Positions 3,435-59,041 of a stretch of 64,000 nt of DNA are shown piece by piece. Position 1 is the first letter of the stretch. Every line of letters starts with the position of its first letter. Made by a program: the position numbers and the translations under genes. The notes below the pieces were generated by a model, which made no database searches, was not told where the DNA came from, and saw only the letters and a list, made by a program, of their open reading frames with translations. Source of the DNA: Octopus vulgaris (lineage: Eukaryota); the NCBI GenBank assembly GCA_951406725.2, contig OX597840.1, forward strand, positions 11,222,001 to 11,286,000, written 5' to 3'.

Positions 3435-3513
3435 ATTTATTATATAGAAGGAGCTTCCTGATGATTTCTCTTGAATGAAACAGTTCTAGTCCTGTAGAAG
3501 CTCCTTCTATATA

Positions 3514-3519
<6 letters not shown>
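3435..3519 (+). ncRNA. Type I hammerhead ribozyme motif with extended helix I
   Basis: CTGATGA (3458-3464), helix II ttc-tctt-gaa, GAAA-CAG-ttctagtc-CTG-TA (cleavage after 3496). Flanked by a perfect 23-bp inverted repeat, atttattatatagaaggagcttc/gaagctccttctatataataaat. Confidence 0.7.
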
Positions 3520-3822: not shown

Positions 3823-3867
3823 CTAAATCTCTCAAAGAATGATATTCAGTAACAGAACTTTAAAGGA

Positions 3868-4077
3868 TATTTGCCAACATAATATGACTGTCCCCCTGGA
3901 GAAGGACGACTGGTAATTCTGTTTAGCCCCAGGAAACATCGTTCGGTTTCGATTCCTTGATCGAGAATATAAGGACACAGACATTGTGTCGTATAGCCAG
4001 CTGGAAACGATGCTTCCTGGGGTTAAATAACAACAGCAGTCGTCCCTTCCAGGACAGCCTCATTATGTTGGCAAATA
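3868..4077. repeat. Imperfect inverted repeat (foldback element fragment)
   Basis: tatttgccaacataat...ccccaggaaacatcgtt versus aacgatgcttcctgggg...attatgttggcaaata. A related sequence lies at 4160-4290. Confidence 0.7.
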
Positions 4078-4085
4078 GGCTTTAC

Positions 4086-4163
<78 letters not shown>

Positions 4164-4712
4164 TATATCGTGATGTAAATATGCCATTTGAATATGGCTA
4201 ACCCCTAAATTGGATGCTACTGTAGTTTTTAGCCCCAGGAAGACATCTCCTCCAGCTGGCTATAGACACACTTTCTGTGCCCTATCACTCCGATATTTAT
4301 CATTATATATATATACATACAAATATATTCATATATATATTTGCGTATGTATATACCTACATGTATATGTATACATATGTGTTTGTATATACATATAGTA
4401 TAAAACTATTGTAGGCAGCTGGGCGCAATATAGGCCGCCTTGGCAAAATTTAGTCGTCAACTAATTGTGAATGCATGTGCTATAAACATAGATGCAATGG
4501 AGAGACACTGTTGAACATTTCCATTGGGACGAAGCCATGCAGTCCAGTGTCCTAGCTTCGCATCGCTCATGGCGCAGTTACCTACTTTGTCAGTATATAT
4601 AAATGTGCTTTTACGCAGCTATAGGTAGTTTAACTCTTATTTTTAGCAGTATATGTGCTTGTAGGACACACAGTCACCACTAAATTTTACATATACATAT
4701 AAGTATATATAT

Positions 4713-8735: not shown

Positions 8736-9119
8736 TTATCTACAACCACAGCTATCAACTATCATGTTAGGCAAGTCTCTTTGCTCGATGACCGCATCAT
8801 CGTTGAAGTAAAGCAGCGATAGGGAACTAAGAGCTGTCGGGGTACAACAGATGATCTGCGAACTGTTTTGTTTCAGGTTCGAAACCATGGAAGTGTGTGC
8901 GTAGTCTTGTAATAATTTGATATCACATTCCCCAGAACAATAGTTGGCGCGATACGTCGATGGAATTATTATCCAGTTCCATCCAAAATCAGCGAAAGTA
9001 ACTTCCATTGGATACAAACAGCAACGGTTCTCGACTTTGGTGGCATCACACTGGAGTCCAACTCCTCTTTTACTTCTTTTGCGCCGGTTTGGAACCATCT
9101 GGATTTCCAAATACGGTTT
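8736..9119 (-). CDS. Last exon of a myostatin/GDF8/11-like TGF-beta ligand (furin site plus mature 9-Cys domain)
   Basis: Acceptor ttttctttctaccatttccag|AAA, phase 0. Reads KPYLEIQMVPNRRKRSKR followed by a 109-aa mature peptide GVGLQCD...RCCLYP...FGWNWII.P..YRANYCSGEC...HT...CCTPT...LYFN...PNMIVDSCGCR* with 9 Cys, collinear with myostatin. Confidence 0.96.
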   Translation of the reverse strand, partial: KPYLEIQMVPNRRKRSKRGVGLQCDATKVENRCCLYPMEVTFADFGWNWIIIPSTYRANYCSGECDIKLLQDYAHTSMVSNLKQNSSQIICCTPTALSSLSLLYFNDDAVIEQRDLPNMIVDSCGCR

Positions 9120-9384
9120 CTGGAAATGGTAGAAAGAAAAAATAAATAATTAAAAATAACGTTAAAAACAACATTGAAAAAAAATAATAATAACAACACA
9201 ACATAAGTTCAACACCTGGAATCTATAGCAGAAGACACTTGCCCAAGGTGCCACGCAGTGGGACTGAACCCGGAACCATATGGTTCGTAAGCAAGCTACT
9301 TACTACACAGCCACTCCTACGCCTACTGTTTAAGTGAATCTAACGGTTTTTGTGTTTCTTAAATGGCTTACAAACACTTTCTGG

Positions 9385-21832: not shown

Positions 21833-21837
<5 letters not shown>

Positions 21838-22321
21838 GTTATCGCCATACTAATATGGCATTCTTATAAAAATAAGAATAAAGCTGTCCGCTTATTAGCT
21901 CCATGAGGCCATCGCCTTAAGTTAGCTATTTGATACACAAACTGTATCCATATAACCTTCGAACAAGGGAGGTCAGTCGCTCCACACTACTTGATCGACA
22001 GCTACAGACGCGTTTCGGGATATTGCCCCTTGTCAATGTAGCGTAGTCAGACCAGTAGGTGTCGCTTCCGACTATCTCTGTTCGAAGGTTTTATTTACCT
22101 AGTTTCGGTGGAATACATCCACTTGTTTTCAATAATAGAAATATTAAAATTACTAAGTCTCTCTAAAAGAGAACACGGCAGCGTTCCTGGAAATTAATAG
22201 TTATCGCCATACTAATATGGCATTCTTATAAAAATAAGAATAAAGCTGTCCGCTTATTAGCTCCATGAGGCCATCGCCTTAAGTTAGCTATTTGATACAC
22301 AAACTGTATCCATATAACCTT
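21833..22321 (-). mobile_element. 362-bp unit with 127-bp direct terminal repeat (retrozyme/pseudo-LTR-like)
   Basis: 21833-21959 matches 22195-22321. A hammerhead-like motif lies between them; (TA)n flank. Confidence 0.75.
22001..22042 (-). ncRNA. Hammerhead-like motif (variant core)
   Basis: gctaca-TTGACAA-ggg-gcaatat-ccc-GAAAC-GC-GTC-tgtagc. Perfect 6-bp helix I, palindromic ACGCGT helix III; core has U3/A8 instead of C3/G8. Confidence 0.65.
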
Positions 22322-22370
22322 ATATAGCAATAATAAATCTCTAAACGAGATATAAACAGTAACTGCTCTA

Positions 22371-22521
22371 TAACATAAGGGGCATCAGCCATCTGAATGT
22401 GGCTAGGGACAGGGCAAGCGGTGGGGGTGTTACTGATGATCGCCTGGGGCTAAATGCATCAGTAACACCCCCACCGCCCTGCCCTGTCCCTAGCCACATT
22501 CAGATGGCTGATGCCCCTTTG

Positions 22522-22525
<4 letters not shown>
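22371..22525. repeat. Foldback of the element family seen at 33185-33778
   Basis: About 65-bp arms aaggggcatcagccatctgaatgtggctagggacagggc..gggggtgttactgatg / catcagtaacaccccc..gccctgtccctagccacattcagatggctgatgcccctt. Confidence 0.85.
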
Positions 22526-23233
<708 letters not shown>

Positions 23234-24278: not shown

Positions 24279-24587
24279 TTACTCATTATCTTTTATTAAA
24301 CTTTTAATACTTTTGATATATATTTAAAATAATATAAATTAATTAATTTTATGTATTGGCTTAAGTTTTTCACTGTTTGATTTGCCTAATAGTGGTTTTA
24401 TCTCTAATTTAATATAATATATATATATATATATATATCTTTTGTTTTGTCCCAAGTGCCATCTGAATATACTAATATATATTTGTCTTCTCGGCTTTAT
24501 AATGGAAATGATAAACATTTTACTAATTCTCTCAGGAAACACAATAATTCACAAGACATTTAGTTACGAAAGAATTAAGATACCTAC

Positions 24588-32358: not shown

Positions 32359-33184
32359 TTGTGTGTGTGTGTTAATCAAATGCCGAGTGAATTTCGTTGT
32401 TTTTCCTCTCTGTCTACGTTGTTTTGAGTATTTGTTGTCTGGAAGTTTCTTCTTGTAGTTGAAGAAATAGCTAGGTTCTTTGGCTGCTATTTCTAAAGTT
32501 CGGTATGTGGTGAAGCAAATTTTTTTTGCTGAACCTAATTATAGTTATATTCATAATTATAATATATATGTATGTGTGTGTGTGTGTATATATATACATC
32601 CGGTAACCCTGCTAAGTTACAGGGTTACCGGATGTAAACAAACCAGCACCCAGTTATCAAGTGCTGTTGTTGACGGTGGTGGTGGTGGTGGTGGGACATG
32701 CACAAGCACAGACACACACACACATACACGCATATATGTGTGTATATACATATACGTGTGTGTGTACGTGTGTATGTATATACTCTTTATCTTATATAAA
32801 ACTTTTAATACGTTTTGATAGTTAAATAAAAAAATATATATATAAAAATATAAAAATATAAAATTATAAACATATATAAAAATATGAAATTTTAAAAAAA
32901 TAAAAAATTAAAAAAAAAATATAAATAAAAATAAAAATAAATAATTAAATAAAATAATAAAAAAAATATAGATTTATAATTTATAAGTTTAAATTATTAA
33001 TTTGAATAATTTTTTAAAAATTTTAACTTTAATTTAAATATTTTAATTTGATTTTTATATTTTATATTTTATATTTTTTATATATTTTTTAATTAATTTT
33101 TTTATATGTATTGGCTTATGATCTTCACTGTTTGATTTGCCTAATAGTGGTTTTATCTCTAATTTAATATAATATATATATATC

Positions 33185-33778
33185 AATAATATTTCTCTAA
33201 ATGAGATATAGACAGTAACTGCTCCATAACATAAGGGACTAAAGCCATCTGAATATGGCTAGGGACAGGGCAGGGTGGTGGGGGTGTTACTGTTGCATTT
33301 AGCCCCAGGCGAACATCAACGTCGCCAGATAGGCTTGACACCATCACGGCGTCCTCTATCCCCCCACCACCCTGCCCTGTCCCTAGCCATATTCAGATGG
33401 TTTTAGTCCCTTATGTTATGGAGCAGTTACTGTCTATATCTCATTTGGAGAATTATTATTGCTGTCGAACAGATTTTCGAAATCAGCAAATGTATTTTGC
33501 TTGAAAGTCTATATATAAATATCCTGCAGAGTGGATTGTTCGTCGAGGAAGCGGCGCCTACCATACGTTGATAATAGGCAAACACCTTGAAACCTAGGTC
33601 CGTGTGTGGTTTCCGCTTCATCGGGGAATTATCTCCCTTTGCAGGATAGAGGACGCCGTGATGGTGTCAAGCCTATCTGGCGACGTTGATGTTCGCCTGG
33701 GGCTAAATGCAACAGTAACACCCCCACCACCCTGCCCTGTCCCTAGCCATATTCAGATGGCTTTAGTCCCTTATGTAA
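33185..33778 (+). mobile_element. 360-bp tandem unit preceded by an inverted partial copy (Penelope pLTR/retrozyme architecture)
   Basis: 33361-33416 is repeated at 33721-33776. 33185-33360 is the reverse complement of 33645-33720 joined to 33361-33461. Flanked by (TA)n. Confidence 0.85.
33562..33606 (+). ncRNA. Hammerhead-like motif (variant core) at the apex of a long hairpin
   Basis: catacg-TTGATAA-tagg-caaaca-cctt-GAAAC-CTAG-GTC-cgtgtg; enclosed by atcctgca..gaagcgg/ccgcttc..tgcaggat. Confidence 0.65.
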
Positions 33779-33961
33779 TATATATATATATATTATAGGC
33801 GCAGGAGTGGCTGTGTGGTAAGTAGCTTGCTAACCAACCACATGGTTCAGTCCCACTGCGTGGCACCTTGGGCGGGTGTCTTCTGCTATAGCCTCGGGCC
33901 GACCAAAGCCTTGTGAGTGGATTTGGTAGATGGAAACTGAAAGAAATCTGTCGTATATATG

Positions 33962-56643: not shown

Positions 56644-59041
56644 GAGTGAGAGAGCAGTGCATGCCATCAAAGTGACACTGGGGTAAAATATACGAACCCA
56701 GTACACCCATCATGACTACATGTATGAAAAGGGTACACTAGGCACATGCATCACAGCCATATCTGCGCGACATGGTGATCTCATATCAAGATAAACAGCA
56801 CATGACCTTGCAGGTGGGGCCCAGTTAGAATTTTCTTCAGGTTGAGTAGCCCATCCCGCTCAAAAGGTCCCTGAATAAGGATTGTTTAAGGATGTTGCAA
56901 GAACCACCCATGTTTCCAGAGGTGAATTATTCAAACCCCAAAGAATCCCTCTCAACACATGGCTATGATGCTCCCCCACTACTTCTGCTCGTGATCAGAG
57001 ATGCACATATCGTCAGCCACTAAGGGACATGCTCAACTGGTTAAGGTCAAACAACTGACAAGCAAATCTGTGGTATTGAGCAGAATATTTGCTGTAGCCC
57101 ATCTTTTATACCAAGACAAAACAATGTACATGATAACACTTCCAATCAGTTAAGATCAGAAGCCATGAGAGCCACTGCCTGGAACTGCATCAGGGCATTA
57201 AAGCAAATCTGTGGTATTGAGCAGAATATTTGCTGTAGCCCATCTTTTATACCAAGACAAAACAATGTACATGATAACACTTCCAATCAGTTAAGATCAG
57301 AAGCCATGAGAGCCACTGCCTGGTACTGCATCAGGGCATTAAAGCAAATCTGTGGTATTGAGCAGAATATTTGCTGTAGCCCATCTTTTATACCAAGACA
57401 AAACAATGTACATGATAACACTTCCAATCAGTTAAGATCAGAAGCCATGAGAGCCACTGCCTGGTACTGCATCAGGGCATTAAAGCAAATCTGTGGTATT
57501 GAGCAGAATATTTGCTGTAGCCCATCTTTTATACCAAGACAAAACAATGTACATGATAACACTTCCAATCAGTTAAGATCAGAAGCCATGAGAGCCACTG
57601 CCTGGAACTGCATCAGGGCATTAAAGCAAATCTGTGGTATTGAGCAGAATATTTGCTGTAGCCCATCTTTTATACCAAGACAAAACAATGTACATGATAA
57701 CACTTCCAATCAGTTAAGATCAGAAGCCATGAGAGCCACTGCCTGGTACTGCATCAGGGCATTAAAGCAAATCTGTGGTATTGAGCAGAATATTTGCTGT
57801 AGCCCATCTTTTATACCAAGACAAAACAATGTACATGATAACACTTCCAATCAGTTAAGATCAGAAGCCATGAGAGCCACTGCCTGGTACTGCATCAGGG
57901 CATTAAAGCAAATCTGTGGTATTGAGCAGAATATTTGCTGTAGCCCATCTTTTATACCAAGACAAAACAATGTACATGATAACACTTCCAATCAGTTAAG
58001 ATCAGAAGCCATGAGAGCCACTGCCTGGAACTGCATCAGGGCATTAAAGCAAATCTGTGGTATTGAGCAGAATATTTGCTGTAGCCCATCTTTTATACCA
58101 AGACAAAACAATGTACATGATAACACTTCCAATCAGTTAAGATCAGAAGCCATGAGAGCCACTGCCTGGTACTGCATCAGGGCATTAAAGCAAATCTGTG
58201 GTATTGAGCAGAATATTTGCTGTAGCCCATCTTTTATACCAAGACAAAACAATGTACATGATAACACTTCCAATCAGTTAAGATCAGAAGCCATGAGAGC
58301 CACTGCCTGGAACTGCATCAGGGCATTAAAGCAAATCTGTGGTATTGAGCAGAATATTTGCTGTAGCCCATCTTTTATACCAAGACAAAACAATGTACAT
58401 GATAACACTTCCAATCAGTTAAGATCAGAAGCCATGAGAGCCACTGCCTGGTACTGCATCAGGGCATTAAAGCAAATCTGTGGTATTGAGCAGAATATTT
58501 GCTGTAGCCCATCTTTTATACCAAGACAAAACAATGTACATGATAACACTTCCAATCAGTTAAGATCAGAAGCCATGAGAGCCACTGCCTGGTACTGCAT
58601 CAGGGCATTAAAGCAAATCTGTGGTATTGAGCAGAATATTTGCTGTAGCCCATCTTTTATACCAAGACAAAACAATGTACATGATAACACTTCCAATCAG
58701 TTAAGATCAGAAGCCATGAGAGCCACTGCCTGGTACTGCATCAGGGCATTAAAGCAAATCTGTGGTATTGAGCAGAATATTTGCTGTAGCCCATCTTTTA
58801 TACCAAGACAAAACAATGTACATGATAACACTTCCAATCAGTTAAGATCAGAAGCCATGAGAGCCACTGCCTGGAACTGCATCAGGGCATTAAAGCAAAT
58901 CTGTGGTATTGAGCAGAATATTTGCTGTAGCCCATCTTTTATACCAAGACAAAACAATGTACATGATAACACTTCCAATCAGTTAAGATCAGAAGCCATG
59001 AGAGCCACTGCCTGGTACCACTCCTGGTACTGCATCAGGGC

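Follow-up and report, generated by a model that had tools for sequence, protein, structure and literature searches.

What kind of element was inserted at positions 33184-33779 of this Octopus vulgaris DNA, and from what template, was the question raised by the locus. In what follows, the window is the whole stretch of DNA that was analysed (64,000 nt), and PMC4209133, PMC7229834, PMC8557442, PMC11167929 and 10.64898/2026.07.22.740005 are cited for the parts of their text that were available. The locus was interpreted, with reasonable confidence, as one insertion of a non-coding 360-nt hammerhead repeat (an animal non-LTR retrozyme), likely mobilised in trans by a Penelope-like reverse transcriptase (RT)/GIY-YIG endonuclease, and probably from a circular monomeric RNA.

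The locus was composed of a 178-nt inverted arm followed by 1.16 direct 360-nt units, and was embedded in (TA)n (Table 1). This agreed with the first-pass annotation, which had described an inverted partial copy crossing the unit junction and then about 1.15 direct units; the junction is crossed because the inverted arm, read as its reverse complement, runs from unit position 284 to 360 and on from 1 to 101. The inverted arm overlapped the direct arm by 1 nt, extended 42 nt past the direct-arm end, and differed from the unit at 3 of 178 nt. The direct repeat (33361-33419 and 33721-33779; period 360) contained 2 differences, and divergence between arms was about 1-2%. The locus is an aged copy whose arms differ at 3 of 178 nt, and its subfamily, with 33 exact hammerhead matches, is small and slightly older. 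The single hammerhead of the locus allows one cut at most, so that release of a monomer from it is impossible and the locus is a dead-end product. The first-pass annotation was corrected on this point: the sources of monomers would be multi-unit arrays, not 33184-33779.

No long ORF was found in the unit. Its longest stop-free stretch (88 codons) ran across the junction and was rejected as a gene, since indels break the frame in relatives. An RT plus GIY-YIG ORF between pLTRs, as in an autonomous EN+ Penelope-like element (PLE), was not found at the locus, and a tRNA-like head or B box, the test for a tRNA-derived SINE, was absent from the unit.

Table 1. Coordinates of features at and around the 33184-33779 insertion (window positions)
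Feature	Positions	Strand	Remarks
(TA)n-type target, left side	33167-33183		sequence
Inverted arm, 178 nt	33184-33361	-	unit 284-360 joined to unit 1-101; 3' end in (TA)n, at the long (tailed) site
Direct arm, 419 nt (1.16 units)	33361-33779	+	3' end in (TA)n, at the short site (about unit position 59)
One 360-nt unit, 46% G+C	33361-33720	+	circularly permuted relative to the predicted cleavage site
"Tail", 44 nt between the two fixed 3' end sites	33420-33463	+	putative reverse-transcription start sites; meaning after the available part of PMC11167929
Putative TATA-like box, just upstream of the hairpin	33512-33519	+	sequence only
Long imperfect hairpin extending hammerhead helix I	33520-33648	+	z -5.54
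Predicted minimal type I hammerhead	33561-33607	+	purpose-written descriptor match (+ 33568); covariation across relatives
Hammerhead helix I	33561-33567/33601-33607	+	predicted
Hammerhead core UUGAUAA, U3-A8 variant	33568-33574	+	predicted
GAAA of the hammerhead	33589-33592	+	predicted
8-nt palindrome replacing helix III, for an intermolecular helix III	33592-33599	+	predicted
(TA)n target, right side	33780-33796		sequence
Second family member, diverged subfamily	22326-22525		two arms, about 110 and 92 nt, head-to-head; tailed at one end and short at the other

The hammerhead had been described as capping a long imperfect hairpin at 33521-33647, and this was borne out with nearly identical limits (Table 1). 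Folding of 33515-33655 gave -58.7 kcal/mol, and none of 200 shuffles was equally stable (z = -5.54). The 360-mer folded with z = -3.7 as a linear molecule and z = -3.4 as a circle, and the unit without the hairpin folded no better than shuffles (z = -1.0). As the remainder folds unremarkably, the label of a highly structured unit fits mainly the hairpin.

A type I hammerhead motif was present in each unit, as identified with a purpose-written descriptor and by covariation; the Rfam search gave no hammerhead match, and chance microRNA-type matches only. The predicted helix II had 3 bp with U-U at its base, a mismatch shared with axolotl HHR_Amex2 in the available part of its description, and the predicted cleavage position was after C33600. 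Across loci the core alternated between U3-A8 and C3-G8, and helix III was palindromic in six sequences (CCUAGG, CCAUGG, CCGG, CUGCAG, CGCG and CAUG). The covariation of core and palindrome indicates that the ribozyme motif is under selection; cleavage itself is predicted. The presence of C at core position 4 in the youngest subfamily counts against the preferred interpretation. In computed energies, an intramolecular helix III added nothing and the intermolecular duplex reached -11.4 kcal/mol, which fits a weakly cleaving palindromic PLE hammerhead and a dimer model. PMC4209133 describes PLE hammerheads with the U3-A8 variant and with a palindromic helix III, a dimer model for them, and weak cleavage of minimal hammerheads in vitro.

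A 29-mer from the unit had 2875 exact matches in the 2.8-Gb genome (control, 0), and family size was extrapolated to roughly 1300-1700 loci. A consecutive sample was taken as all 46 clusters among the first 100 of the 2875 listed matches, and includes two loci, L194 and L195, that look like mutual duplicates. A second sample consisted of 20 further loci picked for multiple hammerheads with subfamily patterns (33, 399 and 809 exact matches). Only unit sequence was present at 46 of 46 consecutively sampled loci, none of which continued from the unit into coding sequence. An arm exceeded one unit at 29 of the 46 and two units at 9. The period in tandem arrays was 358-360 nt, and the longest arrays had 14.7 + 8.4, 10.3 + 7.0 and 9.1 + 3.1 units. 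At least two consecutive hammerhead units, by which 10.64898/2026.07.22.740005 defines active elements in its available text, occurred in the family and not at 33184-33779, where there is one hammerhead. No PLE protein was linked to the unit at the 66 family loci; two had matches, both past a (TA)n end and on a separate insertion. Loci with unit sequence only, together with arrays of up to about 15 units, argue for a self-contained monomer and not merely the stump of a long coding element. The proposal of a non-autonomous element without ORF and with PLE-type insertion architecture was supported. The counter-reading named in the first-pass annotation, that the unit is always the truncated 3' end of a coding PLE, failed at the DNA level, where head-to-tail arrays reached about 15 units and had 5' ends all round the unit.

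The 3' ends clustered at two unit sites, about 57-59 (short) or 99-103 (tailed), about 44 nt apart, and most ran into (TA)n. Head-to-head arms were found at 26 of the 46 consecutive loci; exactly one tailed end (unit 98-103) was present at all 26, and the opposite end was short (51-59) in 23. The 20 single-arm loci ended short in 12 cases and tailed in 8. In the multi-hammerhead sample exactly one tailed end was present at 20 of 20 loci, with the other end at 54-59 in 18. One exception, with two short ends, was L027, in a set of 27 family loci. According to PMC8557442, tandem and inverted copies, a tail often at one end and a (TA)n bias are features of PLEs. In PMC11167929, PAc, a Penelope-like protein, nicks and extends both strands in vitro and starts at two internal RNA sites, whose spacing equals the genomic tail.

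Examination of genomic copies for permuted ends, which had been suggested as a check, found 5' ends spread round the unit. Near the cleavage site (235-247) lay 7 of the 74 ends in the consecutive sample, where 2.7 would be expected, and 1 of the 42 in the array sample; without a pile-up at the site, reverse transcription usually ran through it. Arm lengths correlated weakly (Spearman 0.34, p = 0.085), which counts against the preferred interpretation.

At 26 loci, 150 markers were common to both arms and 1 was arm-specific (L220). The 26 loci had 18 majority haplotypes, and at each locus every unit in both arms carried the same one, a uniformity that assembly polishing may exaggerate. Three full units or more were present at 16 loci (110 units), where 44 substitutions were singletons and 1 was shared. 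Of the singletons, 11 formed one cluster in L186; in that array units 2 and 4 also had one change in common, and part of unit 1 was replaced. At L172, outside the 16-locus set, a dinucleotide change was common to units 1 and 3. A period-2 or shifted-register pattern between arms was set aside as largely an artefact of reference choice. One haplotype in both arms, singleton changes and the lack of a 5' pile-up together suggest that one monomer was likely copied repeatedly, and each insertion was likely born mostly as identical copies of one monomer in both arms. Insertions of one monomer are most simply explained by rolling-circle copying of circular RNA, which PMC4209133 and PMC7229834 propose.

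In the proposed mechanism, multi-unit arrays would be transcribed, and two hammerheads would pair via their palindromic helix III and excise RNA of unit length, to be closed into a circle. A Penelope-like enzyme would nick both (TA)n strands, prime one cDNA at each internal site and copy round the template over varying distances; the ends of the two cDNAs would then be joined mid-insertion. Part of the stretch was present in 20 of 24 listed sequencing runs (9 studies). Contigs from four runs guessed to be RNA covered the unit and bridged the 33720-to-33361 joint; they were dropped as evidence of a circle, because genomic arrays contain the same joint and the contigs show neither ends nor strand.

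The same family and the same Penelope-type driver could also have used a linear template, either uncleaved read-through transcripts of arrays or a cut monomer with repeated jumps of the enzyme from 5' to 3' end, and no covalent circle. This was judged unlikely, although it is the rival that best survived. Uncleaved RNA is the main substrate of PAc and hammerhead mutants do not impair insertion (PMC11167929), and the weak cleavage of minimal hammerheads (PMC4209133), the variants common to non-adjacent units in L172 and L186 and the slightly raised number of 5' ends around the cleavage site in one of the samples point the same way. However, read-through alone cannot lengthen arrays, and the 18 haplotypes are each fixed over all units of both arms; a new change would fill an insertion of 10-20 units only via one monomer. 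Repeated jumping on one monomer and a circle have the same DNA outcome.

A Penelope-like driver acting in trans is a likely candidate by analogy: the two fixed ends, the inverted arms and (TA)n are as in PLEs and in resident Neptune-type families. Coding Neptune-type PLEs were found in the genome with intact 781-aa RT/GIY-YIG frames preceded by another ORF (L064, L065 and many more; young). Two end sites in (TA)n are seen in the Neptune-type families as well, one of which carries a hammerhead-like motif whose core is U3-A8 and whose helix III is palindromic. Poseidon-type PLEs were abundant, with open frames of up to about 1000 aa. The best 150 of 6136 and of 12262 PLE candidates were scored. 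A linked unit or homologous terminus was found at 0 of 42 GIY-YIG loci (30 loci from the search and 12 larger stretches, with some overlap), and a linked unit at 0 of 30 Poseidon-type loci. Apparent links of the unit to a PLE at L052, L060, L066, L087, L179 and L251 were adjacent separate insertions.

Alternatively, the units might be 5'-truncated terminal repeats of a long coding PLE, with arrays formed later by local unequal crossing-over or slippage, the scenario of 10.64898/2026.07.22.740005. The architecture does match ordinary truncated PLE insertions (PMC8557442), and the coding PLE families examined were a minority of those in the genome. This origin was nevertheless considered improbable: the 46 consecutive loci contained only unit sequence, the PLE protein matches at 2 of 66 loci belonged to separate insertions, and arrays start mid-unit, end at exact priming sites and are long in both arms. 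Changes in arrays were almost exclusively singletons, unlike those of a stepwise expansion, and judged by this pattern local expansion fits poorly as the origin of the arrays. Least credible was a DNA-level repeat (foldback transposon, satellite or extrachromosomal DNA circle) with an incidental hammerhead, with which the inverted ends, the tandem arrays and the fact that all direct evidence is DNA agree, but not the unequal inverted ends tied to two fixed sites on one strand sense, the freely varying 5' ends, or the covariation of ribozyme core and palindrome.

Under the preferred interpretation, a trans-mobilised hammerhead repeat, the family is a further member of the metazoan non-LTR retrozymes, a class that is already described (PMC7229834; 10.64898/2026.07.22.740005). 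Shared with the retrozymes of these two sources are a non-coding unit within 150-450 bp, one type I hammerhead per unit, a range from monomers to multimers, coexistence with PLEs and a proposed cycle from circle to tandem cDNA. The octopus family differs in its minimal PLE-type hammerhead with intermolecular helix III, and in keeping all the insertion marks of a PLE (two fixed ends, inverted arms and (TA)n); the terms "inverted" and "target site" have 0 occurrences in the available text of PMC7229834. The G+C content of the octopus unit (46%) is at the edge of the range of <45% stated for metazoan retrozymes in the available text. With EN+ PLEs (Neptune, Penelope/Poseidon) the family shares a partial tandem plus an inverted 5'-truncated copy, a tail at one end and a microsatellite target (PMC8557442, PMC11167929), and a minimal hammerhead that includes the U3-A8 variant and a palindromic helix III (PMC4209133). 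It differs from them, as far as they are described in these parts, in lacking an RT/GIY-YIG frame, in its 360-nt monomer, so that arms hold many units, and in its tail length (44 nt vs. 30-40). A PLE terminal repeat homologous to the unit, a further point of difference from retrozymes, was absent among the 42 GIY-YIG and 30 Poseidon-type loci. Plant LTR retrozymes are non-autonomous and hammerhead-bounded, have a circular RNA intermediate, and carry a type III hammerhead in LTRs, a PBS and PPT, a 4-bp target duplication and a Gypsy driver. The octopus family shares with them the non-autonomous state, the hammerhead and probably the circular RNA intermediate, and their architecture of LTR, PBS, PPT and target duplication is absent from it. 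The literature search returned no specific description of an octopus or cephalopod retrozyme; bioRxiv supplements and Repbase lay outside that search and may hold the family. It returned nothing specific on PLE models with rolling-circle copying and an inverted tail, or on ORF1-only Tx1 elements targeting hammerhead repeats.

Further relatives were present in the window. The foldback at 22330-22525, which had been taken for a second family member, proved to be one (22326-22525): it was diverged, 86-95% like the 3' part of the unit, and had no hammerhead left. Abutting it at 21833-22321 (- strand) was a second family of hammerhead units, with a period of 362, an exact terminal repeat of 127 nt and a U3-A8 core; by profile it is a distant relative of the 360-nt unit. 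Further diverged members of the unit superfamily lay at 3823-4090 and 4165-4287, and in the former the arms are again head-to-head, one end being tailed and the other short. A small foldback at 3446-3515 contained a third hammerhead motif, with a C3-G8 core, and the same family occurred near the GIY-YIG locus L060. An AT-rich repeat ending in (TA)n flanked both window copies (33091-33175, 22576-22656, 23059-23132 and 24337-24420); it was rejected as a regular partner, as among 27 family loci only the 33184-33779 locus and L027 carry one. Elsewhere in the window were a TGF-beta family ligand exon (8736-9149, - strand; Pfam TGF_beta, E = 5.6e-27) and, at 57045-58960, a tandem array of about 144-nt period that showed up as a repeated open frame.

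Several hammerhead unit families contained, just upstream of the hammerhead hairpin, a 1.6-kb cassette whose zinc-knuckle ORF has about 450 aa when intact and no RT (L031, G000:C5:54350000-54358500; L076-L095, L104, L105 and L110); the cassette was not seen in the subfamily of 33184-33779. First-look candidates numbered 13151. Among the 20 best loci, the cassette ended in a 10-17-nt direct repeat in 13 and had a hammerhead core at most 40 nt downstream in 10. The same ORF occurred without unit matches in head-to-tail chains with a 1.8-2.0-kb period, followed by paralogous zinc-knuckle ORFs (L096, L099-L103, L228-L233), and the chains terminated in an AP-endonuclease/RT/zf-RVT ORF2. They look like ORF1-only derivatives, inserting into each other, of what is presumably an L1/Tx1-type element. 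The zinc-knuckle ORF in the relative L031 was rejected as the parent element of the unit: it lies between 10-17-nt direct repeats, in different unit families, and also occurs without units. As the cassette is also in chains ending in an endonuclease/RT ORF2, it is likely a separate LINE derivative targeting the units and not their parent.

Somewhat more tentatively than the main interpretation, the insertions may record the Penelope integration step itself. One enzyme pair on one circular RNA would nick both (TA)n strands, would have to begin one strand at the short start site and the other at the tailed one, and would go round the circle up to about 15 times; and in the same superfamily an ORF1-only zinc-knuckle LINE derivative would insert site-specifically just upstream of the hammerhead and ride along, as a parasite of a parasite.

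The mechanism of tandem and inverted PLE insertion, and whether retrozyme arrays arise by rolling-circle copying or local DNA amplification, are both open questions in the available text of PMC8557442, PMC4209133, PMC7229834 and 10.64898/2026.07.22.740005. More than a thousand insertions, small and young, are available in the family, and they follow two rules that can be counted, a short end paired with a tailed one and a single haplotype in each insertion; the 360-nt substrate suits existing in vitro PLE assays. The class of element is known, and this family is an unusually clear record of how such elements likely spread.
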